Shown piece after piece: positions 1 to 15,988 of a DNA stretch of 64,000 nt; within the stretch, counting starts at the first letter, position 1; each line of letters opens with the position of its first letter. Position numbers and translations under genes: made by a program. The stretch is taken from positions 44,318 to 108,317 of the forward strand of contig CAWHTK010000005.1 of the NCBI GenBank assembly GCA_963832205.1, read 5' to 3'. Origin of the DNA: Blastocatellia bacterium. GTDB lineage: Bacteria > Acidobacteriota > Blastocatellia > UBA7656. Below the pieces are notes generated by a model, which had not been told where the DNA came from, searched no databases, and saw nothing but the letters and a program-made list of their open reading frames with translations.

Positions 1-4998
<4,998 letters not shown>

Positions 4999-5023
4999 TC
5001 TTCGGCCCTCTTTCCAGGCAGCT

Positions 5024-5063
5024 AAAAAATAGGGGATGGAGCCTGGCTCCATCCCCTTAATTG
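5024..5063. terminator. Bidirectional intrinsic terminator-like hairpin between convergent rpoC and protease gene
   Basis: Perfect 13-bp inverted repeat AGGGGATGGAGCC / GGCTCCATCCCCT (5031-5058) flanked by an A-run upstream and TTAATT downstream. Confidence 0.55.
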
Positions 5064-5085
5064 CTTGGAGGGGGCAGGTATTTAT

Positions 5086-6876
5086 TCAGGGCTCCAGGCT
5101 CGGGGTTAGCTCTCGAATAGTAATATTGTCCACCATGTATTTGAGCGAGCCAATGGTCTCGAAGAAAAGCTCGCTTGCCACATCGGAGCTGTGTGTGAAG
5201 GGAAGCTTCAGAGTGATTTGCTCATTCTCGGAGGCGAAATTCCATTCCAGGCGCTTCAGCTCACTGTGCAGGGTGCCAATGCGCATCAGGGCAGTGTTTG
5301 TGATCGGGCCCGCCACGTGTTTTGCCGTGAAAGTGATTTCATAGTTCCTGTTCCGGCGAAAGCTGACCTGTCTCGACAGGCGGTTAAATAAAAGCACTAT
5401 CCTCCCATCGACGACTCCACTGAAATCATTCGACCCGTTTATCCCCCAGGATGTCACGTAGCATTTGCCGACATAGTTCCACGCGCGGCGGTCGTCGGCA
5501 GTTTCAAAATCCATCGCCTTATCTTCCCGAACTATGGTCACGCTGAATACGTCTATGGGGCCGCCGGGCGAGGCGTTGATCAGCAAGCGATAGTCCGATG
5601 CGTTGCCCAGGGTCACTCGCTCTGTCATCACTGCTCCCGCGAGCCCTGGGTGAAACTTCAATGCTATGTCGCCGGGGCCAAGCCTGTCAGAGCCGGTGTC
5701 GGTCCTGAAGGTTAGATAGCCAGCCTGTTCATCAGAGTTGAGAGCGCGCATATTTACCGTCACCCTGTAGGTTGCTCCCGGCGTAAACGGGGCCGTATTC
5801 CAGAGGGGATCCGACTCGGTGATTCTGCCGCGCCAGGTTCCGCCCTCATTTATAATGAGCCCACCTCCGCCCGAACCGGGCACTACCTCCTGACGCCACT
5901 CGGAGCGTTTAAAAGGTGTGTCAAATCCTATCGTCCTGAAATCTCTGATCGGTCTGGTCATCATCCAGTCATACTCTATGGCATCAATAACCCAATTCCT
6001 GCTGCCAAAAGTATTACAGCTTGCGTCGAACAAGTTCAGGAAGTGATCGGCGTCCGTGGCGCAGCGAACATCATCGTTGCCGCAAGACGTTATGCCTATG
6101 ATCTGATTGTTGCGTTGGGCGAAAACAGGACTGCCCGAGGCCCCACCCCTGTTCTCTATATCATAGTTGGTCATCGGGCCATCAAATCCAGGGTGGATAA
6201 AATGGTCGAGGGCTTTTCCCGGAGAATAGAGTATCGTCGAACTAACCTTATTACCCCTAAAGTTATCTACCGGATTAACCCAGAAGCTGTATGCTTCATC
6301 TCCGATCATTACTGCTACAGGATCAATGTCAAGGTACCCGTACTTGATGCCGGGAGGAACGCCGTCGCTGCCGTTATCGAGCCACCACAACTGCACGTCG
6401 CCGCCGCCGGTCGCGGAATTAAAGACGGTCCACGGAAATGTGCGCGCCTGGTAAGGCTGGCTTTGTCGCTGGGCCAAATCACCAGGGGTGGCCGAGTCTT
6501 CGTCGATCCGAAAGAAGCGCACGTTTGAAGTATGTGCCGGGCCGCCACAGTGGGCAGCCGTCATGAAGATGTGTGGGGATAGCATGACGCCGCTACAGAG
6601 CCCCTGGTCAATCAACCCGATGGCAAAGCTGTTCTGCATGCGATCCGTCTTACTCGGCGCTACACCGCCCTCGTGGAACTCCCACATCGTCATGGTTCTG
6701 GGGCCGGTACTTTCAATAGCCTGGACCGGCCCTTGTTGCCGGGCTTGCGCCGGTATGATGGTGACCGTCAGGGCGATTGCGATTGCAAGATTCAATGCTG
6801 CGCGCAAATGAAATTCTCTTCTCATCCTACACCTCACTTTCTTAGACTCGGAGGTCCTCCCCGGCCTGGCCGGCAT
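5086..6876 (-). CDS. Secreted trypsin-like (S1 family) serine protease with ~300-aa C-terminal extension
   Basis: Signal-peptide-like N-terminus (MRREFHLRAALNLAIAIALTVTIIPAQA, likely true start ~6828); His motif MTAAHCGG; Ser motif GGASGSPVF (GDSGGP-like); long C-terminal domain of unknown function. Confidence 0.6.
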   Translation of the reverse strand: MPARPGRTSESKKVRCRMRREFHLRAALNLAIAIALTVTIIPAQARQQGPVQAIESTGPRTMTMWEFHEGGVAPSKTDRMQNSFAIGLIDQGLCSGVMLSPHIFMTAAHCGGPAHTSNVRFFRIDEDSATPGDLAQRQSQPYQARTFPWTVFNSATGGGDVQLWWLDNGSDGVPPGIKYGYLDIDPVAVMIGDEAYSFWVNPVDNFRGNKVSSTILYSPGKALDHFIHPGFDGPMTNYDIENRGGASGSPVFAQRNNQIIGITSCGNDDVRCATDADHFLNLFDASCNTFGSRNWVIDAIEYDWMMTRPIRDFRTIGFDTPFKRSEWRQEVVPGSGGGGLIINEGGTWRGRITESDPLWNTAPFTPGATYRVTVNMRALNSDEQAGYLTFRTDTGSDRLGPGDIALKFHPGLAGAVMTERVTLGNASDYRLLINASPGGPIDVFSVTIVREDKAMDFETADDRRAWNYVGKCYVTSWGINGSNDFSGVVDGRIVLLFNRLSRQVSFRRNRNYEITFTAKHVAGPITNTALMRIGTLHSELKRLEWNFASENEQITLKLPFTHSSDVASELFFETIGSLKYMVDNITIRELTPSLEP

Positions 6877-6900
6877 GCGGGGAGGACCACGCTCAAGCCG

Positions 6901-9156
6901 CTAGAAGACGACCAGTGTAAAAGCGCTGTCTACGAGCGCCCAACCGGCTGAAGGAGTGGCCCCTATTGACCAGGTCCGAACTTTGATCTGGTTGGGGGCG
7001 AGGAATTCGATTGTGGCCGAAATCCCGAAGTTGCCGCTCGACTGAGGGGTGACGACAACGAAGCGGTCGTTGACCGGAAAAGGAAAAGTGATTATAGATT
7101 CGCCGGGCCCGCCCGGCCCTACCGCGCGGGTGAATCCATTGCAAGTATTAACGGCGGCGGCAAACGTAAACTCGGTAGCCTGAAAACAACTGGGCCCGCT
7201 CGCCTCGTATCGAAACATGGCTTTGACCCATCCGCCTTTCTCCCTGTATTGAATCACATTCCCGTTTGCCCGCACGGCGAATCCGTTTATCGTCGATCCG
7301 AAGACGCCTATACCATTTGTCGATTCGCCTACTACGCCATGTCCGTTGTTGGCCGTGCCTGCCACGCCGGTTCCAACGTCGCTCGTTGTTTCTCCGACGA
7401 TGCCATGCAGACCCGTGCTGCGAGTCCTTATGCCTGTTCCTGAATTATCTATGGTCAGGACAGCGCCGACTGATTGTGCGCTGAGCAATAGCGGAACGGT
7501 GAGTTTTGATCCGCTCACCGACTGTGGCGCAAGTTTTTCGGCAGTCACCGCAAGATTGTCTATCTGTGGTGTCCCTATCGAGAGCGCCCCGAGATGCTCG
7601 CCATGAATCGCGCCGTCGGCAATCTGCTCGCGGCTTATGGTCTTATCGGCAATCTGTTCCTTTCTTATCGTTTTGTCGGCGATCTTATCGCTTGTGACGG
7701 CTTTTGCGCCGAGCTTGCGTACAGTCACAGCCTCATCGGCGAGCTTTGTCACGGTGACGGCATTATCGTCGAGCTTTTCATCGGTTATCGACTTGGGCGC
7801 TATCTTGCGGACGGTCACGGCCTCGTCGGCAAGCTTATCGACCGTGACCGCGCTGTTGTCGAGCTTCTCTTCGGTCACGGCCTTATCGTCGAGCTTTTCC
7901 CTGGTCACAGCTTTGAGCGCGAGCTTCTTGTCGGTCACGGTAGAGTCGGCGAGCTTGTCGGCTGGAATCTCGCCCGCGATGTGTGTGGGGCCGACACTAT
8001 TTTCGGCCAGGTGCATACCTTTGACAGCCCCGCCGCCGATATGCTGCGAGCCTACGGAATTCTCTGCTATGTGTTGGCCTGCGACGGCCGCCGGCGCAAG
8101 ATGCGCGCTCGCGACTGCCTGCGGAGCTATGTGCGTGCCTGCGACGGCCTGGGCGCCAATATGCTGCCCCCGTACTGCTTGCGGAGCTATCTTCGCGGCA
8201 GTCATGGCACTGTCGGCTACCATAAAAGTCTCGACGCCTTGCTCGGCTATTCCGAGCTTAACCATGCCGCCGGTCCCGCCTCCGTCAAGGCCGGTTGACG
8301 CTACAACTCCGGTGACCGACCCATCCGTGTCCCCTATAGCTGCTGTTGTCTGTATGCTCCCGTCGGGGAATTTTATCCCGCCCGTAGTGGAATGAATTAA
8401 TCCCGCTACTTCGAGAAACGAGTTCGGATTACTCGTGCCAATTCCCGTGAGGCCCTCGCTTGTAATCCACAGGCGGTTCTTGTTACCGGTTCTAATCCCG
8501 AGCGGGTGATTCGAGACTGTCCCAAATAGCCCATTTATGTTGTCTTGAAAGATAAGCGCTTCGCCTCCACTTGCGCTCTTGACTACTATGGACGAGCCCC
8601 CTTCCTCCTGCACCATAAGAGTACCGCCGGCCGTCAGCGGCGCGGCCCCTCCGGTTCCTACATGCAGGCGGGCGAGCGGATTCTGTGTGCCCAGCCCCAT
8701 ACGTGGAGTTCTTATCTTGTAAGGGTTATCACCTTGATCTACATCCCAGTCTTCTACTCCCTGCGTTTTTACGGTGGCGGACAGACCGCCCGCGGAAGCG
8801 ACCGACTCGCGCTTGTGGCCGAGTATTATATTGCCGCTCTGTTTCTGTATGCTGCCCGATTCATCAATAAAAGTTATCGTGTAGGAGTAGATGCCTTCAG
8901 CAGCAGGCTCGCCCGTAAGGTCATTCTTTAACCAATCTACAATCTGTGCCTTAACGGTCCCGCTATCATAGACCATATCGCCCGAGGCATTTGACACCTC
9001 TATACGGTGCGCCCGGCTGTTGTCAGGCAAAGCAAAACGAACAATGTTGCGGGATAGCGTAATACTGACTTCTTTACTTTCTGATTGTGAAAAGCCATAG
9101 ATCGAAATCAGCATTACCAATATTAGGCTAAGAACGCATTGTGATTTTCGCATCAT
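6901..9156 (-). CDS. Secreted fibrous/adhesin-like protein with ~23 tandem decapeptide repeats
   Basis: N-terminal signal peptide MMRKSQCVLSLILVMLISIYGFSQS. Central run of 10-aa units, first (I/L)A(P/E)xAVxGxH x7, then xLADxAVTxx x~14 (e.g. KLADEAVTVR, KLGAKAVTSD, KIADKTIRKE). Gly-rich segment and C-terminal globular domain. 24-nt gap to the protease gene on the same strand. Confidence 0.5.
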   Translation of the reverse strand: MMRKSQCVLSLILVMLISIYGFSQSESKEVSITLSRNIVRFALPDNSRAHRIEVSNASGDMVYDSGTVKAQIVDWLKNDLTGEPAAEGIYSYTITFIDESGSIQKQSGNIILGHKRESVASAGGLSATVKTQGVEDWDVDQGDNPYKIRTPRMGLGTQNPLARLHVGTGGAAPLTAGGTLMVQEEGGSSIVVKSASGGEALIFQDNINGLFGTVSNHPLGIRTGNKNRLWITSEGLTGIGTSNPNSFLEVAGLIHSTTGGIKFPDGSIQTTAAIGDTDGSVTGVVASTGLDGGGTGGMVKLGIAEQGVETFMVADSAMTAAKIAPQAVRGQHIGAQAVAGTHIAPQAVASAHLAPAAVAGQHIAENSVGSQHIGGGAVKGMHLAENSVGPTHIAGEIPADKLADSTVTDKKLALKAVTREKLDDKAVTEEKLDNSAVTVDKLADEAVTVRKIAPKSITDEKLDDNAVTVTKLADEAVTVRKLGAKAVTSDKIADKTIRKEQIADKTISREQIADGAIHGEHLGALSIGTPQIDNLAVTAEKLAPQSVSGSKLTVPLLLSAQSVGAVLTIDNSGTGIRTRSTGLHGIVGETTSDVGTGVAGTANNGHGVVGESTNGIGVFGSTINGFAVRANGNVIQYREKGGWVKAMFRYEASGPSCFQATEFTFAAAVNTCNGFTRAVGPGGPGESIITFPFPVNDRFVVVTPQSSGNFGISATIEFLAPNQIKVRTWSIGATPSAGWALVDSAFTLVVF
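7590..8290. repeat. 30-bp tandem DNA repeats (coding decapeptide repeats of the 6901-9156 gene)
   Basis: Units such as gtcacggccttatcgtcgagcttttccctg / gtcacagctttgagcgcgagcttcttgtcg / gtcacggtagagtcggcgagcttgtcggct recur with 30-bp period. Both strands give long repetitive ORFs (7594-8298, 7637-8395 are antisense artefacts). Confidence 0.65.
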
Positions 9157-9490
9157 ATCTTTCTCCTAAGACTCGCCTGGGCAGGCCGGCAATAGAGCGC
9201 GGACGGATGGCCTGCTTTAGGTGGATGGCCTTGTTGCAGGTGATCGAAAATACCGGGCGCATGCCCGATGCATAAGAGCCGCCCGCCGTTGTCGAAGCGG
9301 TTCGGGCGGTTTTTCATATATTCTGAAAGGCAGGTATGTTACATTTGTGGCGCTTTTCTCATCTTTAATTTTCGTCTACATTAAGATGAGGAGCGGCCCA
9401 GCGATCGGTGGTGTTAACTACCCGGCCTCGCTAGGCAGGTTAGTTTATATGTTCTTAGAAGTCCTTAATTAATTCTAAAAGAACCCTAAA

Positions 9491-10964
9491 ATGAATATAA
9501 GAGCACGGGCTGGCTGCCTGTACGAGTTTGGACCCTTCAGACTTAATACCGCGGAGCGATTGCTGATGCGAGACGGTCAGGCTGTGCCGCTTACCGAAAA
9601 AGCCTTTAACGCGCTTGCGATGCTGATAGAAAACAGCGGGCATCTGCTGGAGAGGGAGGAGATGCTGACCGCTATCTGGCACGACAGCTTTGTCGAAGAA
9701 GCAAACCTTACTGTCACTATCTCAGCAGTCAGAAAGGCGCTGGGCGAGCAGGCCGGACGGGCAATCATATATAGAGACAGTGCCGAAACGTGGCTATCGC
9801 TTTGTGGCCGAGGTAAGTCTGCTGGATGAAGGGAGAGAGTTACTTACCCAGAGGCAGCGTGGCCCGGCAGATGATGAGCGCTCAACCGGCAGGCCGGTTA
9901 TGCTCTCCAGCCAGACGACCCTCCCGGCCTGGCACCTGGACCCCGTGGGCGGGGCAATCCGGCTGGATTCAATTTTCTACATTGCTCGCCCCGCTGATCA
10001 TGAATTTCACTGCGCGGTATCGCGCGGCGATAGTATCGTGCTTATCAAAGGCCCGCGGCAGGTCGGGAAAACTTCTCTGCTGGCTCGCACCCTTCAACTG
10101 GCGAGGGATTCCGGGGCCAAAGTCGTCGTGACGGATTTTCAGGCATTCACCTCCAGAGACCTTGAGAGCACGGATAACCTGTTATTAGCCATGGCCAATT
10201 ACATCGCCGAGCAGCTTGATTTGGATGTGCTTCCTGCCCAGGTATGGGTTGCGGAGCGAGGCCCCGGCATAAACTTGGAGCGATATCTAAGGCGCGAAGT
10301 GCTGGGTCGTATATCTTCGCCAATTGTCTGGGGACTGGACGAGATAGACAGGCTTTTTTCGTACAGCTTCGCAAGCGAGGTGTTCGGCCTTTTTCGCTCA
10401 TGGCATAACAAACGCGCACTTGAGCCGGTTGGCCCCTGGCGCAATCTCACGCTGGCAATTGCATACGCCACGGAAGCCCATCTGCTTATCACGGACGTGA
10501 ACCAGTCGCCGTTCAATGTCGGCACCTGTTTCACACTTGAGGATTTTACAATCGAGCAGGTATCTGAACTCAATCGCAGGTACGGCGCGCCGCTTGTGGA
10601 TGCCTCTGATCTGGCGACATTCTTTAACCTCGTGGGCGGCCATCCGTTCTTGTCTCACCGGGGGATATATGAGATGGCCGAGCATGCCATCAAGATTAAT
10701 GAGCTGCAAGAAAGCGGCGCGAGTGACCAGAGTCCATTCGGAGATCACCTGCGCCGGTTGGCCCTCTCTTTGTCGCGCGATTCGAAACTCTTGCAAGCAG
10801 TGCGCGATGTCATTGAAGGGCGGCAGTGTCCCGGCGCCGAGACCTTCTATCGTCTGCGTAGCGCCGGTGTCTTGTCGGGAGAGACGACGCGCGCATGCCG
10901 GCTCCGCTGTCAACTCTACGCTGCTTACTTGCGGAATCACTTTTTCGAGGGCGAACGGCAATGA
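9491..10964 (+). CDS. CadC/OmpR-type winged-helix DNA-binding domain fused to AAA_35-like P-loop NTPase; frame broken near 9755-9765
   Basis: ORF 9491-9829 holds the N-terminal part of a trans_reg_C wHTH (...[54 protein letters not shown]). ORF 9690-10964 in another frame continues with the canonical wHTH end [17 protein letters not shown], then Walker [18 protein letters not shown] and Walker [16 protein letters not shown] stop overlaps the ATG of the next gene (ATGA). Confidence 0.6.
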
Positions 10965-13900
10965 CGAAGCAAGTGCCGTCGATAACCCACGTATCCGCGC
11001 TGCCTTTTTACATCGCGGGTGGCACATTGCGCCACGACGCGGCCTGCTACGTTGTTCGAAGGGCTGATGACTATTTGTATAGCGTGCTGGCGCGAGGAGA
11101 TTTCTGCTATGTGCTCACTTCGCGGCAGATGGGAAAATCTTCCTTGATGGTCCGCACCGCGATGCGGTTCAGGGAAGAATCGGCGGGTGTGGTAGTTTTG
11201 GACCTGACTGCGATCGGGCAGAACATGACAGCCGAACAGTGGTATGACGGATTGCTCGCGATGATGGGAACGCAATTGGACCTGGAGGATGAGCTTGATC
11301 AGTTCTGGAGAACGAGCTACAGGCTAGGCCCAATGCAGCGGTGGGCGCGGGCGATTCAAGAAGTTGTGCTGCCAAGGTATCTGGGGCCGGTGATAATCTT
11401 TATTGATGAGATTGACGCCGTGCTAAGCCTGCCTTTCTCTACCGACGAATTCTTTGCAGGCATACGAGAGTTCTATAACCGCAGAACTCAAAACCGTGAC
11501 CTTGCCCGACTGACGTTCTGCTTGCTGGGCGTAGCTTCACCCTCGGACCTGATACGCGAGACTCGCACAACTCCGTTCAACGTAGGATACCGGATTGAGC
11601 TGACGGACTTCACCGACGGCGAGGCTGCTCCCATCGCGCGCGGGTTCAATCGCCGGGAGCGGTCGGCGGCCGCATTGCTACAGCGCATTCTTTACTGGAC
11701 GGGCGGGCACCCATATCTGACGCAACGGTTATGTCAGGTAGTGGCGAAAGATGCGGAGGCCATGGGCCCGGGCGACATTGATCGTTTTTGTGAAGAATTG
11801 TTCTTCTCGCACCGGGCGCAAGAGCGGGATGATAATCTGCTCTTTGTGCGAGAGCGATTGCTGAGAAGCGAAGCTGATCCCGCAGCTCTGCTCGGAATGT
11901 ATAGCAAAGTGCGCGCGGGCAAGCGGGTGGTTGACGAAGAGGAAAGCGCCCTTGCCGATATACTCAGGCTGTCAGGAGTTGCAAAGGTGGAGGGGGGAGC
12001 GCTTCGAGTCCGAAACCGTATATACGCGCGGGTCTTTGACCAGAAGTGGATCAGGGCCAATATGCCCGATGCCGAGCTGCGCCGACAGCGGGCCGCATAC
12101 CGTCGCGGCCTTGCGCGCGCCGCCGCCATTGCTGCCGTCATTATTCTCATAATAGCCGCGCTTGCGATGGTGGCGCTCAAGCAGCGCGACGAAGCCGAGC
12201 GGGCGCGATTGGAGGCGCAGAGACAGCAGAAAATCTCGAAGTCGCGCGAGCTGGCCGCCCGCTCTATCGCGTTGTTGGCGAGCGATCCCGAGTTGAGCCT
12301 GTTACTGGCTAGCCAGGCAGTTGAACGCTTTGCTTACACGACCGAAGCGGCAGATGCCATGAGGCGGTCGTTGCGTGAATCGCACGTCAGCTTAGTACTG
12401 CGCGGTCACAAGGGATGGGTTTGCAGCGCCTCCTTCAGTCCCGACGGCAAGCTGATAGCCACTTGCGGTGCCGACCGTATGGTGCGGCTGTGGGATGCAA
12501 GCACCGGACAGATGCTTGCGGAAATGAGCGGTCACACGAATCTCGTTTACTCGCTATCTTCAGCCCCGACGGCAAGTTTCTGGTGACGAGCGGATTCGAT
12601 AAGACGGCCCGGCTCTGGGACGTTGGCTCCAGGCGATGTGTAGCCGTGCTGGCAGGGCACACTAGAAACGTGCATCATCCGGTCTTCAGCCCCGATGGCA
12701 GTATCATCGTATCGTGCAGCGTTGACGACACTGCGCGCGTATGGGAGACAAGCACCGGACAAATGCTTGAAGTGCTCAGAGGGCATATAGGGGAAGTGAG
12801 GAAGGCTACCTTCAGTCATGACGGTAAGATACTGATCACGACAGGCTTTGATAAGACGGCGCGAGTGTGGAACGTAAAGACCTGGAAGACGCTGGCGGTG
12901 CTGAAAGGTCATACGGACAACGTTATCAACGCCGATTTCAGCCCCGATGATAAGATGATGATAACGACCAGCACTGATCAGACCGGTCGGGTCTGGGATA
13001 CAAATACCTGGCAATGTATAAGCGTATTGGGCGGACAGGCGGGCGAGATGATGAACGCCTCGTTCAGCTCTGATGGTAAAGTGGCGCTCACCGCAAGTTA
13101 TAGCGATACGGTGAATATATGGAATACAAAGACGTGGCAAAGCGAAAGGGAGTTGAAGGGCCACAAAAGCGGGGTGCGAAGCGTTGTGATAAGTTCCGAC
13201 AACAAGCTTGCCGTGACAGCCAGCGAAGACGGCACGGCGCGAGTGTGGGAGATGAGTACGGGAAAGAGTATTAAAGAGTTGCGCGGGCACACGGGAGGTG
13301 TTACAGAGTGCCACATTCAGCCCGGACAATAGGTTTGTTCTTACCTCTAGCGTTGACGGGACGGCGCGAGTGTGGGACATCGAATGGGGGAGTTTCAGAA
13401 CAGAGATGCTTGGGCACCAGGACAGTATTTTCAGCATAAACTATAGCCCTGATGGCAAGCTCGTTGTTACCTCGAGCGCGGACCAAACGGTGCGGGTGTG
13501 GAATGCCACCATAGGCGAGTCTTTAAGTGTGCTGCGCCACCCGGATTGGGTCTTTACGGCGGATTTCAGCCCGGATGGCAGGTTGTTGGTAACGGCGTGT
13601 CGTGATGGTGTGGCGCGTGTCTGGGAGGTGGATGAAGACCGAATTGTTATGGAACTGCGCGGCCACACAGAGCCATTGATCACCGCCGCATTCAGCCCCG
13701 ACGGGAAACTTATTGTTACTACGAGCCTGGATAAAACGGCGCGAATCTGGGACGCAGCCACCGGAGAGCTATTGCGGGAACTTCGGGGGCACACCCAGCC
13801 GCTTACATTTGCGCAATTCAGCCCCGACCTCAATCTCCTTGCTACTTCGAGCGAGGATTTGACGACCAGGGTATGGGAAGTCGGCACCGGCCAGTGTCTG

Positions 13901-14362
13901 GCCGTACTAGGTGCGCATACGGCCCATGTGTTATCAATGGCTTTCAGTCCTGACGGGCGCTTTATGGCCACCGCGAGCGCTGACAGCACTGCGAGGATAT
14001 GGGACGTGACAACGTGGCAAACATCGGTAGAGTTAACCGGGCACACTCACAATTTAAATAGCATTGTATATGATACCGAGGGCAGATTCATTCTAACGGC
14101 GAGCCTGGACGGCACTGCGCGTGTGTGGGAGGCGCAAACCGGGGAGGCAATCGACGAGATGAGAGTATGGCCCTGGGTTGCGGCATTCAGCCCCGATGGG
14201 CAGTTCGTGGCGACGGCAGGCGGAACTGTTGTGAGGGTATATCCTTGCGAGTTGTGCCGTCCGTTCGATGAGTTGATTGCGCTTGCCCGCTCACGCGTGA
14301 CACGACAATTAACGGCCGAAGAGCAGCAGAAATACCTGAAAGATTCGGTGAGCGACCAATAA
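10961..14362 (+). CDS. AAA_35-like P-loop NTPase / single TM helix / coiled coil / 14-15 WD40 repeats; frame broken near 12560 and 13305
   Basis: [11 protein letters not shown]... start overlaps upstream stop (ATGA). Walker [16 protein letters not shown], Walker [15 protein letters not shown] helix [21 protein letters not shown] then charged coiled coil. Repeated GHTxxVxSxxFSPDGKxLVTxSxDxTARVWD units across ORFs 10895-12586, 12415-13332 and 13298-14362. Single-base corrections (e.g. removing one a in ggtgttacagagtgcc gives ...[14 protein letters not shown]...) join them into one ~1130-aa protein. Confidence 0.6.
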
Positions 14363-14383
14363 GCTTGCCGACGCGGTGGTCTG

Positions 14384-14998
14384 CTATTCTTTGTAAACGG
14401 CGGCCGCAAGCTCTGTTTGCGGGGTGAAGGTGCCAGACGCCGCATCCACTATCCACTCCGCGCGGTGCTCGGTCTCATCAGTTTCGCGGAAGGAGAAGAC
14501 TATGACAAACTTGCCCCCCTGCCTGGAGGTGACGGCCCAGCCCTGATAACTCTGCAGGTTGCCGACCCGCCTCGATCTCTCCACCTCCTTCATCAGCCGC
14601 TGATCGACGCTTAGCCCTTCTTGGAGCGAGGGAGAATTGCGAAGTTTTTCCAACACGGCCATTGACGTCTCCACGTCGGCCTGCTGGCCGGGCAGCAACT
14701 GGTCTCCAAACACGTATAGAACCAGACCGACGACAAGCGCGGCCAGCCCGACCCCTAGCATAAGCGCCAATCTCTTTGCCCGCTTGCTCGTGTCATTGGG
14801 GGCCGGTCCTCGGCCGCTGCGCTCGCCTCGACCTTTAGCCCTTGCCGGTGCGGGGCGCGGGGCATTCTGCTCTTGCAAAGCAGTATTGGTCTTTGGCCTG
14901 GGAAGATTGCAATCGGGACAGTGTGTGTCGTCGGCGGAAAAAACATTCTGGCATCTCGGGCATCTCATTGGCAGACCTCGGCGCAAAATAAACTCCAT
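14384..14998 (-). CDS. Zinc-ribbon / Pro-rich linker / single-TM protein with ~100-aa C-terminal extracytoplasmic domain
   Basis: MRCPRCQNVFSADDTHCPDCNLP (C4 ribbon), Pro/Arg-rich linker, TM helix LALMLGVGLAALVVGLVLYVF; convergent with the WD40 gene. Confidence 0.5.
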   Translation of the reverse strand: MEFILRRGLPMRCPRCQNVFSADDTHCPDCNLPRPKTNTALQEQNAPRPAPARAKGRGERSGRGPAPNDTSKRAKRLALMLGVGLAALVVGLVLYVFGDQLLPGQQADVETSMAVLEKLRNSPSLQEGLSVDQRLMKEVERSRRVGNLQSYQGWAVTSRQGGKFVIVFSFRETDETEHRAEWIVDAASGTFTPQTELAAAVYKE

Positions 14999-15595
14999 AG
15001 ATTATAAGCACGCGCCAGGCCACTTCCCCGGCATCATCGGAATGACCGGTATGGGGAAGATACTGGCGAATACTAAAGTTTTATTGCTCGCCCGACGGCG
15101 CCGAGCCCGCACGGGTGACGGATTCTGTCAGCGAGGGAAGATTTTGTCATTCCGGATCACTCGGCCGAGGCGTTTCAGGCTTGATCGAGTCGAGTCACCG
15201 GTGCCGGGGTTGACAAGATTTTGATCAATCGCTATAGTTTACCGTTTGGTGCGGCAATGCTTTTTGGTTCTGGTATTACTGCGGAGGCGTTGCCGTTGAT
15301 TGAAGCAAGTCTGGATTGAACGTTATTGTGGCGTAAAAGGGGGCGGCAATCACGCTGCCTTCCCGATACCAAATGTTATTCACCTGAGATCACGCCACAG
15401 ATAAGTTAGGCCGAGGGGAGGCCGTATCCGCAGCAGCATTTCAGAACTTCCCCATTAATTAAATCACTTGAGCCCGATAGGGTGGGTGCGCGCATCGCGG
15501 CCCGTTTTGTTATTGCGCGTTCCAAAATCACCCGATGAGGTTCCTCATATTGGAAGGGGCGCTGCCTTGAGCGGCAAGTTGAGAGGAGTTAGAGC
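14999..15595 (+). promoter_or_regulatory. ~600-nt non-coding leader/promoter region upstream of rpsL (str operon)
   Basis: No credible ORF (14637-15224 + ORF overlaps the better-supported minus-strand Zn-ribbon gene); SD-like GAGAGGAG precedes the GTG start of rpsL. Confidence 0.4.
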
Positions 15596-15988
15596 GTGCC
15601 AACACTGAGTCAGCTAGTTCGAAAGGGACGTCAAAACGTAAAGTATAAGACATCGAGTCCGGCCCTGCAGTCTTGCCCGCAGAAGCGCGGCGTCTGCACC
15701 CGCGTTTATACCCAGACGCCGAAGAAGCCGAACTCGGCCCTGCGCAAGGTCGCGCGCGTGAGGTTGACCAATAGCATCGAGGTCACGACCTACATCCCTG
15801 GGATCGGTCATAACCTCCAGGAGCACTCGATCGTGCTCATACGCGGCGGGCGCGTCAAGGACCTGCCCGGCGTTCGCTATCACGTCGTGCGCGGAACTCT
15901 CGATTCGGTCGGCGTTGCCGGCCGTAAGCAGGGGCGCTCTAAGTACGGAGCCAAGCGGCCGAAAGAGGCTGCTCCGGCCAAGAAATAG
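15596..15988 (+). CDS. rpsL: 30S ribosomal protein S12 (GTG start)
   Basis: [52 protein letters not shown]... canonical S12. Confidence 0.95.

Follow-up and report, generated by a model that had tools for sequence, protein, structure and literature searches.

The window analysed here, a 64,000-nucleotide stretch of a soil Blastocatellia bacterium (contig CAWHTK010000005.1, positions 44,318 to 108,317 of the forward strand), contains a 9-kb accessory block between the RNA polymerase gene rpoC and the ribosomal protein gene rpsL. We consider, with a probability of about 0.6, that the core of this block is a split, two-protein transmembrane signalling module of the STAND type (signal transduction ATPases that have numerous domains) that controls transcription. 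It is formed by two adjacent genes for AAA_35-type nucleoside triphosphatases (NTPases), the upstream one termed N1 and the downstream one N2, which probably relay outside signals to transcription. An earlier note had described the pair as paralogous, joined by an ATGA overlap, with a winged helix on N1 and a transmembrane (TM) helix and 14-15 WD40 blades on N2, and each of these features was recovered by Pfam, hydropathy or sequence comparison. Coordinates are window positions, and L-numbers designate comparison loci or contigs.

The winged helix of N1 spans about 9491-9820 and its AAA_35 module, a predicted nucleotide-binding oligomerization domain (NOD), about 9912-10961. The Trans_reg_C score, obtained on the fragment that precedes a frameshift described below, exceeds the gathering threshold of 26.2 bits, and residues 11-114 match NCBIfam CadC (E 3.5e-14), HilA and OmpR. 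Both proteins pass the gathering threshold of AAA_35 (PF14516; 27 bits) in the hidden Markov model (HMM) search. The WD40 region of N2 comprises 14 Pfam stretches (1+6+7 over three fragments) and a fifteenth, degenerate blade recognised by eye, enough PF00400 units for propellers. N1 and N2 align with 31% identity over 290 residues (E 1e-25) and are paralogues by sequence; the N1 stop and N2 start codons overlap as ATGA at 10961-10964. No second N1/N2 copy was found in the window.

The Walker A and B motifs read GARQVGKT and WGLDEVD in N1, and TSRQMGKS and FVDEID in N2, and are invariant across 27-37 N1 and 32 N2 homologues, with threonine replacing the first Walker A glycine in the N2 clade. 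Four elements show no variation in either clade: the lysine/serine of Walker A, the DE of Walker B, (S/T)PFN(V/I)G and GGHP(Y/F)L. The last of these is a candidate for the GxP motif of the helical domain, which in NB-ARC proteins reads GLPL. Because these motifs are kept in both clades, N1 and N2 are probably both active NTPases.

Structure models were built for single chains. The N1 model (predicted local distance difference test, pLDDT, 83; predicted template modelling score, pTM, 0.75) shows a P-loop core of Rossmann-like fold, followed by a helical domain and, C-terminally, a winged helix. The N2 model (pLDDT 78.5) contains the same NOD, retrieves the same top Foldseek hits as N1, and has its first WD40 blades after a long helix: in this AlphaFold model a continuous 70-residue helix (371-440) runs from the juxtamembrane motif through the TM segment and along the stalk, and is followed by a second helix (443-473). 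As modelled, both NTPase modules have NOD folds, and the STAND-style label proposed in the earlier note is supported at fold level. Two hallmarks of STAND proteins are found, namely a P-loop core with Walker A and Walker B (hhhhDE) motifs and a tripartite NOD made of nucleotide-binding domain, helical domain and winged helix. A third, the presence of effector, NOD and repeat sensor in one polypeptide, is not: at every paired locus the output lies on N1 and the repeats on N2. PDB sequence searches with both NODs gave no meaningful match, and NCBIfam and PADLOC searches with N1 and N2 gave no family beyond the winged helix. N1 of the window had no BTAD or NB-ARC hit in Pfam, which sets it apart from the Streptomyces antibiotic regulatory protein (SARP)/AfsR family.

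In the assembly, both genes are interrupted by indels, near 9757 in N1 (one extra base, A) and near 12553-12559 and 13301 in N2; rpoC is interrupted near 1865 (1855-1875), and single-base indels occur about every 3-4 kb. L001, a 7.6-kb ENA contig that is 99.6% identical, differs from the window at eight indel positions. The extra A at 9757 is missing from it, and its own breaks fall at window positions 5247, 5840, 10420 and 11221, where the window is intact. At 12553-12559 (L001 7552-7555) both sequences are wrong, in different ways (CTATCTTCAGC versus CTAGTCGTTCAGC), a pattern that points to a systematic error of long reads in one sequence context. Since rpoC is frameshifted too, and L001 has its indels elsewhere, the N1 and N2 frameshifts are, from these sequence comparisons, assembly errors, and stitched, indel-corrected proteins of 490 (N1) and 1134 (N2) residues were therefore used. 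The orthologues in two NCBI metagenome-assembled genomes (MAGs), L002 and L003, are uninterrupted (498/1137 and 509/1131 residues). Genuine pseudogenisation was rejected from the rpoC frameshift, the intact L001 sequence at 9757 and these full-length orthologues.

Relatives of the pair are abundant. The N1 query matched at least 6,897 proteins at E ≤ 1e-10 among 8,000 scored; the 120 N1 matches listed all combine Trans_reg_C with AAA_35, and those with a named source belong to Blastocatellia or other Acidobacteria. When each GTDB species was represented by one genome, a scan gave 562 N1 relatives, of which the best 80 loci were compared. These are the top N1 matches, hence biased to close N1 relatives, and lie mostly on MAG contigs; nearly all belong to Blastocatellia or Pyrinomonadaceae MAGs, often with two or three loci per genome. 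Pairing was assessed by tblastn and analysis of open reading frames (ORFs), with crude, longest-start ORF calls. In 67 of the 75 evaluable species-level loci the next gene downstream on the same strand belongs to the N2 clade, with a median estimated gap of 2 nucleotides (nt) and a gap of at most 100 nt in 59; three more loci have N2 adjacent in another orientation. Side observations at L055, L074 and L087 are one N1-type gene followed by two tandem N2-type genes, the two sensors of L055 being different (WD40 and CarboxypepD_reg).

The two genes are also inherited together. The distance matrices of N1 NODs and partner N2 NODs correlate in a mirror-tree comparison with r = 0.85 (maximum of 0.20 in 999 permutations), and at 41 of 66 loci N1 and N2 have their nearest relatives at one and the same locus. 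Part of this co-variation stems from the shared history of the species, within-genome paralogues being included in the comparison. The two NTPase genes thus recur together elsewhere, with adjacency in 70 of 75 loci, as the earlier note's proposal of a coupled pair implied. Each paralogous lineage has its own conserved chromosomal context, and judged from these sequences the pair is a widespread, abundant paralogous Blastocatellia module rather than a one-off.

The N1 clade has a constant C-terminal NOD and a variable N-terminus. The 82 N1-type genes in the loci carry a winged helix (49), a Ser/Thr kinase (15), kinase plus TIR (13), cyclase plus kinase plus TIR (2), cyclase plus TIR (2) or TIR (1). 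An exhaustive HMMER search returned 8,636 clusters at 50% identity with E ≤ 1e-3, and 1,722 with E ≤ 1e-30; among the top 72 cluster representatives TIR_2 occurs in 37, Pkinase in 19, BTAD (SARP-type) in 18 and Trans_reg_C in 5, with single caspase, CHAT and cyclase cases. On a contig of 1.25 Mb, one BTAD-AAA_35 gene adjoins an AAA_35-WD40 gene. At eight kinase-only loci a PF07638 sigma factor gene of the extracytoplasmic function (ECF) type lies immediately upstream of N1 (L056 8106-8684; L067 8071-8676; L074 7793-8554; L071, L075, L079, L080 and L087). Kinase-only loci appear as three-gene units of sigma factor, kinase-AAA_35 and AAA_35-TM-WD40. The outputs seen (OmpR-type winged helix, SARP, Ser/Thr kinase, class III cyclase and TIR) are all activated by dimerisation or oligomerisation, which would explain their exchange on one scaffold.

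N2-clade proteins, for their part, have no output domain. Their NOD and TM helix are followed by WD40 repeats in most cases, and otherwise by CarboxypepD_reg, PEGA, TonB_C or TPR, the last being very frequent in the protein database. By hydropathy, on which all TM and topology calls rest, a TM helix lies at an equivalent position in 65 of 67 N2 homologues; its flanks contain on average 5.7 K/R before versus 3.9 after the helix, and 1.2 D/E before versus 2.2 after. As the NTPase must be cytoplasmic and the TM helix is single, the C-terminal region of N2 would lie outside. PEGA, CarboxypepD_reg and TonB_C are typically extracytoplasmic or found in exported proteins. The TM helix, the modest charge bias and these alternative C-terminal domains together place the WD40 propellers on the outside in our prediction. 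A motif starting with E[LV] just before the TM helix (N2 residues 372-386, window 12074-12118) is near-invariant in N2 homologues of any sensor type, and is a candidate element for signal transmission or contact with N1.

A conserved cis-element abuts the N1 start codon. In the window it comprises AGTCCTTAA (9460-9468), then CTAAAAG at 9475 and CTAAAAT at 9486, direct repeats 11 bp apart that end against the ATG. Of 45 loci with a winged helix (wHTH-type), 20 have the pattern AGTC[CT]TT[AT] 31-95 nt upstream of the N1 start in the coding-strand orientation, where its density predicts 0.35 (about 58-fold enrichment), and a relaxed form is found in 31 of 46 upstream regions. Of 80 occurrences in the 1.48 Mb searched on both strands, 24 share one 500-nt bin upstream of N1. 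A/T-rich direct repeats, recurring every 10-12 bp, follow the pattern, L012 having three GGAAATTCTTTGG units, and a TATAC/TATAT-like hexamer often precedes it by 12-16 nt. Kinase- and TIR-type loci showed no consistent placement of the pattern (2 of 32). Comparison of three orthologous N1 promoters gave only one shared 9-mer, and the element appeared only across the 46 paralogous upstream regions. Because it is restricted to wHTH-type modules, the element is a good candidate for an operator of the N1 winged helix, which would imply autoregulation, or it may be a 5' leader. The 9-mer AGTCYTTAA has just one other match in the window, inside N2; no regulon is proposed.

From these features the following mechanism may be envisaged. 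The cytoplasmic NOD of N2 would be anchored by the TM helix, which with the helical stalk would hold the two WD40 propellers at the external surface of the inner membrane, and N1 would be a soluble paralogous NOD bearing the OmpR/CadC-type winged helix at its N-terminus. Binding of a ligand by the propellers would be signalled through the TM/juxtamembrane helix to the N2 NOD, causing nucleotide exchange and opening. N2 would then nucleate an NTP-dependent co-oligomerisation with the N1 NOD, placing N1 winged helices side by side, so that they could bind direct repeats, probably including the AGTCCTTAA/CTAAAAG element before N1, and alter transcription. More tentatively, and somewhat short of even odds, AAA_35 pairs in general may constitute an undescribed bacterial class of transmembrane signalling, in which an outward-facing sensor NOD nucleates a cytoplasmic hetero-oligomer with an output NOD. 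Such a class would be a membrane-spanning counterpart of NAIP-NLRC4 and of the sensor/helper pairs of plant receptors of the nucleotide-binding leucine-rich repeat type (NLRs), with one scaffold using induced proximity to drive a winged helix, a SARP, a kinase-to-ECF-sigma relay, a cyclase or a TIR domain.

In the window, the block lies downstream of the rpoB tail (3-668) and rpoC (762-4998). The ORF listing and Pfam then give a hairpin, two minus-strand genes, N1, N2, a Zn-ribbon gene and rpsL (15596)-rpsG-fusA-tuf (Table 1). The genes of the accessory block that the earlier note had placed between rpoC and rpsL were all found where it put them. The rpoC-rpsL junction was compared across the 80 loci returned by a metagenome scan with the rpoC C-terminus. 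In the five closest relatives (L089-L093; rpoC C-terminus 86-92% identical), rpoC, a terminator hairpin, the Zn-ribbon gene and rpsL follow within 1.3-1.7 kb, and the NTPase pair is absent from the junction in all five. A hairpin of the GGGATGGAG...CTCCATCCC type, as in the window, lies 3' of rpoC in L091-L093, and one of different sequence in L089 and L090. More distant Acidobacteria (rpoC 65-71%) have rpsL only 200-360 nt after rpoC. Since rpoC and rpsL are neighbours in these relatives, at 200-360 nt or at 1.3-1.7 kb with only the Zn-ribbon gene between them, the block is an insertion into a syntenic junction, as the earlier note had expected, and a comparison of sequences identifies it as optional. 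Two Blastocatellia MAGs, L002 and L003 (rpoC 87-88% identical), hold an orthologous N1-N2 pair exactly where the window has its insert, upstream of the Zn-ribbon gene, with identities to the window of 56-60% for N1, 69-73% for the N2 NOD and 65-70% for the TM-stalk region. Presence of the insert is therefore patchy among equally close relatives.

Table 1. Features of the rpoC-rpsL junction in the window.
Feature	Position	Strand	Evidence
rpoC terminator hairpin (GGGGATGGAGCC...GGCTCCATCCCC)	5031-5057		12-bp stem, -24 to -25 kcal/mol, z about -4
Trypsin-like (S1) serine protease, 596 aa	5086-6876	-	Trypsin PF00089, 25.8 bits (cut-off 20.6); PF13365
Tail-fibre-like secreted repeat protein, 751 aa	6901-9156	-	phrog_892 (phage tail fibre), E 9e-40; signal peptide
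Strong terminator-like hairpin with U5	9274-9319	+	-25.8 kcal/mol, z -4.9; divergent intergenic region, 175 nt upstream of N1
Conserved cis-element, candidate operator or leader	9460-9492	+	AGTCCTTAA, then CTAAAAG and CTAAAAT; abuts N1 start codon
N1, predicted output subunit: OmpR/CadC-type winged helix, disordered linker, AAA_35 NOD	9491-10964	+	Trans_reg_C 48.1 bits; AAA_35 253.6 bits
N2, predicted sensor subunit: AAA_35 NOD, juxtamembrane motif, one TM helix, helical stalk, about 15 WD40 blades	10961-14362	+	AAA_35 106.5 bits
N2 TM helix, residues 387-406	12119-12178	+	peak hydropathy 3.1
N2 WD40 region, two propellers, predicted extracytoplasmic	12410-14300	+	Pfam WD40 stretches
Zn-ribbon and TM protein (CxxC...CxxC)	14384-14998	-	Pfam and ORF listing

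The genes of the block span 5086-14362, and by comparison with the empty sites the insert extends from about 5058, just past the rpoC hairpin, to about 14383, 21 nt before the Zn-ribbon stop. Its G+C content (0.50-0.58) is slightly below that of the flanking core genes (0.58-0.63). No integrase or transposase was found among the block genes, nor any flanking direct repeats of at least 8 nt at the block boundaries. The block thus lacks the marks of a mobile genomic island (integrase or transposase, tRNA target, flanking repeats), and the insert/empty-site polymorphism is present all the same. Elsewhere in Acidobacteria, the rpoC-rpsL gap is filled with 3.5-8.8 kb of unrelated genes (L099 2346-10822; L105 11446-18079; L110 4103-7628; L122 10896-19685). 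These encode B12/radical SAM proteins, a Crp-family regulator, an ATP-dependent DNA ligase, an FAD oxidoreductase, AMP-binding, PP-binding and acyltransferase proteins and an MFS transporter. Gene content thus makes the junction a general variable slot in Acidobacteria.

The earlier note had counted five non-core genes bounded by hairpin terminators. The hairpin on the rpoC side, whose T-run is on the minus strand, was recovered and is the left boundary of the block, whereas a search 3' of N2 found no hairpin comparable to it. The Zn-ribbon gene, moreover, is not one of the inserted genes. Homologues with 33-42% identity occur in the five empty-site relatives, and none was found at any other N1/N2 locus. 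Sequence comparison thus makes it a resident of the rpoC-rpsL junction in this lineage and a marker of the right boundary, outside both insert and module; a role as third component of the module was rejected for the same two reasons. About 600 nt separate this gene from rpsL. They contain a near-consensus sigma-70-type promoter (TTGACA-17-TATAGT, 11/12) at 15210-15238 on the plus strand, about 360 nt upstream of rpsL, which implies a long str operon leader. Of the other features, the hairpin at 9274-9319 has no plus-strand gene upstream for termination, and an Rfam search of 4900-15700, this hairpin included, gave zero matches.

The secreted S1 protease and the fibre-like repeat protein reported in the earlier note were both recovered on the minus strand. 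The protease has a signal-peptide-like N-terminus and carries TAAHC and GGASGSP (GxSGSP) motifs. Its PF00089 match is marginal and the catalytic Asp was not located, the assignment to Peptidase S1 following from the HMM threshold and the His and Ser motifs; the C-terminal domain of about 300 residues was assigned to no family. The repeat protein has 10-11-residue repeats at its centre, seen as a tandem periodicity of 30/60 nt. Both proteins are, from locus comparison, variable cargo of the block, the protease being predicted to be secreted: other genes take the protease position in L002 and L003, where the cargo between rpoC and N1 consists of Hcp in one and of HYR and DUF3466-like proteins in the other. 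A homologue of the fibre-like protein (38% identity) occurs in a different genome at L026 290-1678 (minus strand), about 8 kb upstream of another wHTH-type pair. The divergent upstream genes of several transcription-factor-type pairs encode secreted or surface proteins, among them Hcp, HYR/PKD adhesins, S8/S1 proteases and the fibre-like protein (L002 8705-9349; L003 5325-9407; L006 1-9208; L172 1004-7694; window 5086-9156). By the crude ORF calling used, about 25 of 37 wHTH-type loci have a divergent ORF as their nearest upstream neighbour, and several of these ORFs encode secreted proteins (Hcp, HYR adhesins, S8 or S1 proteases). Such neighbours hint at a local regulon and are too inconsistent across loci to call one.

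A split STAND relay is the most economical reading of these data, and several observations weigh against it. Five of the 75 N1 genes have no adjacent N2, and no conserved target gene was found beside the pairs, upstream neighbours clustering only within orthologous contexts. Among the 50%-identity representatives of the wider N1 clade, no N-terminal domain is more frequent than TIR (37 of 72), and together with the caspase and CHAT cases it forms a conflict-type STAND signature at the sequence level. One TIR-AAA_35 relative (L169 2240-4381; L170 431-2572) is followed by a 149-residue HATPase_c_2 (RsbW-like anti-sigma kinase) gene instead of N2, so that pairing is a property of part of the N1 clade. 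WD40 repeats of the PF00400 type are usually cytoplasmic in bacteria, and the positive-inside bias of N2 is modest, both predicted TM flanks being basic. Finally, the putative operator core is common to paralogues of one genome, which would predict cross-talk, or else a recognition factor that is not N1.

The TIR and caspase relatives bring to mind a conflict or defence role, which the earlier note had allowed for. The pair would then be an anti-phage STAND system of the abortive-infection type, in which N2 recognises an invader molecule and N1 is the effector arm, the wHTH version inducing a toxic or protective regulon. The modelled NOD fold is indeed common to Avs, CED-4 and NLRs, TIR, caspase and CHAT outputs exist in the wider clade, the block is accessory and patchy among close relatives, and a tail-fibre-like protein, Hcp and secreted proteases are its neighbours. 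We nevertheless judge this role quite unlikely. No PADLOC-DB 2.0 model was matched (N2 gave none, and N1 only P-loop-local matches at E 3.6e-4 or weaker), and no relatives were found on viral contigs. By prediction the N2 sensor faces outward, unlike the known STAND defence sensors of bacteria, which bind phage proteins in the cytoplasm. In the window the output is a DNA-binding domain, and the kinase versions couple to ECF sigma genes; the several paralogues per genome, each in a conserved chromosomal context, follow the pattern of a signal-transduction family. For the wHTH version, the evidence thus leans to transcriptional signalling over defence.

N2 might also hold N1 inactive at the membrane through NOD-NOD binding, much like an anti-sigma factor, until a signal frees N1 to act as an AfsR-like regulator. 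Gene coupling and co-variation fit such a sequestration equally well. The NOD and TPR of AfsR inhibit its DNA-binding domain until ATP binds (PMC10936776), and the N1 genes without N2 suggest that N1 may act alone. This arrangement, although to be taken seriously as a mechanism, appears rather unlikely, since the invariant Walker A and B motifs of both proteins are more easily explained by an active co-assembly cycle, and kinase, TIR and cyclase outputs need bringing together, not mere release; loci with one N1 and two N2 genes (L055, L074 and L087) would fit several sensors feeding one output. The three frameshifts across N1 and N2 in the window could, for their part, indicate decaying pseudogenes, or two neighbours without functional link, which is very improbable given the rpoC frameshift, the L001 pattern, the full-length orthologues of L002 and L003, and the adjacency and co-variation of the pair. 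The split relay remains the preferred reading.

Among characterised systems, the closest analogue of the output half is AfsR. In AfsR and the large SARPs of Streptomyces (wHTH-BTAD-NOD-TPR), as in N1, an OmpR-type winged helix lies N-terminal to a NOD-type NTPase that gates transcription activation, and BTAD members exist in the N1 clade. The SARP dimer of AfsR places its DNA-binding domains side by side on direct repeats, under the NOD and TPR inhibition described above (PMC10936776). AfsR, however, keeps an NB-ARC-type NOD and a TPR sensor of its own in one cytoplasmic chain, whereas the window has an AAA_35 NOD, an N1 without BTAD or sensor, and the predicted sensor on a membrane-anchored paralogue. 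For the logic of pairing, the nearest analogues are NAIP-NLRC4 and the plant sensor/helper NLR pairs, which likewise combine two paralogous NODs, one with ligand-binding repeats and the other with the output, and which hetero-oligomerise as proposed here. Plant sensor/helper NLR pairs are also encoded by adjacent genes. Those systems are eukaryotic, cytosolic and immune and use NACHT or NB-ARC modules, whereas the present pair comes from a bacterium, separates NOD and sensor by a TM helix, and would have a transcriptional output and a presumed interaction of its subunits.

Other known systems share fewer features. Avs1-5 and bNACHT are single proteins, cytoplasmic sensors of phage proteins with nuclease, NADase or protease effectors, unlike the split, membrane-anchored module with its wHTH output. 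The archaeal Walker-type ATPases PABY2304 and SSO1545 (PDB 2qen and 2fna; ATPase_2, PF01637) have 12-16% identity and are stand-alone, without output or sensor domains. Regulators of the CadC/ToxR type use the same winged-helix family and link a periplasmic sensor across one TM helix to transcription, but CadC holds winged helix, TM helix and sensor in one chain without an NTPase, whereas two NTPase modules would be interposed here and the DNA-binding subunit would be soluble. The kinase-type N1 paralogues, placed directly after a PF07638 ECF sigma gene, have the arrangement of the EcfP-PknT, EcfK-PknS and ECF43-like pairs, in which ECF sigma factors encoded beside Ser/Thr kinases are activated via phosphorylation (PMC8999054). 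The kinases reported there have no NOD module or NOD-TM-WD40 partner, and the window module has neither kinase nor sigma factor. A literature search for AAA_35, PF14516 or "AAA-like domain", mostly without subscription journals, gave no relevant match, and the main texts of an eLife 2020 paper on conflict systems and of a 2026 STAND census do not name the AAA_35 family. The earlier note's statement that this pairing is not a named system agrees with the PADLOC, PDB-sequence and literature searches.

Bacterial signalling is mostly described in terms of one-component, two-component, ECF/anti-sigma and Ser/Thr kinase systems, and NOD/STAND proteins are regarded as cytoplasmic switches made of one chain, acting as regulators (MalT, AfsR) or as immune sensors (Avs). 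The family to which the pair belongs counts thousands of proteins in a class that is dominant in soil, with several copies per genome, no structure and no defence-database match. Its swappable outputs and conserved upstream element make the module directly testable. If the proposed reading is true, it would add a split, membrane-spanning NOD relay to these systems, and would represent a natural bacterial case of the sensor/helper NOD pairing whose logic has so far been studied in plant and animal immunity. It would also offer an entry point to environmental sensing by uncultivated Acidobacteria.

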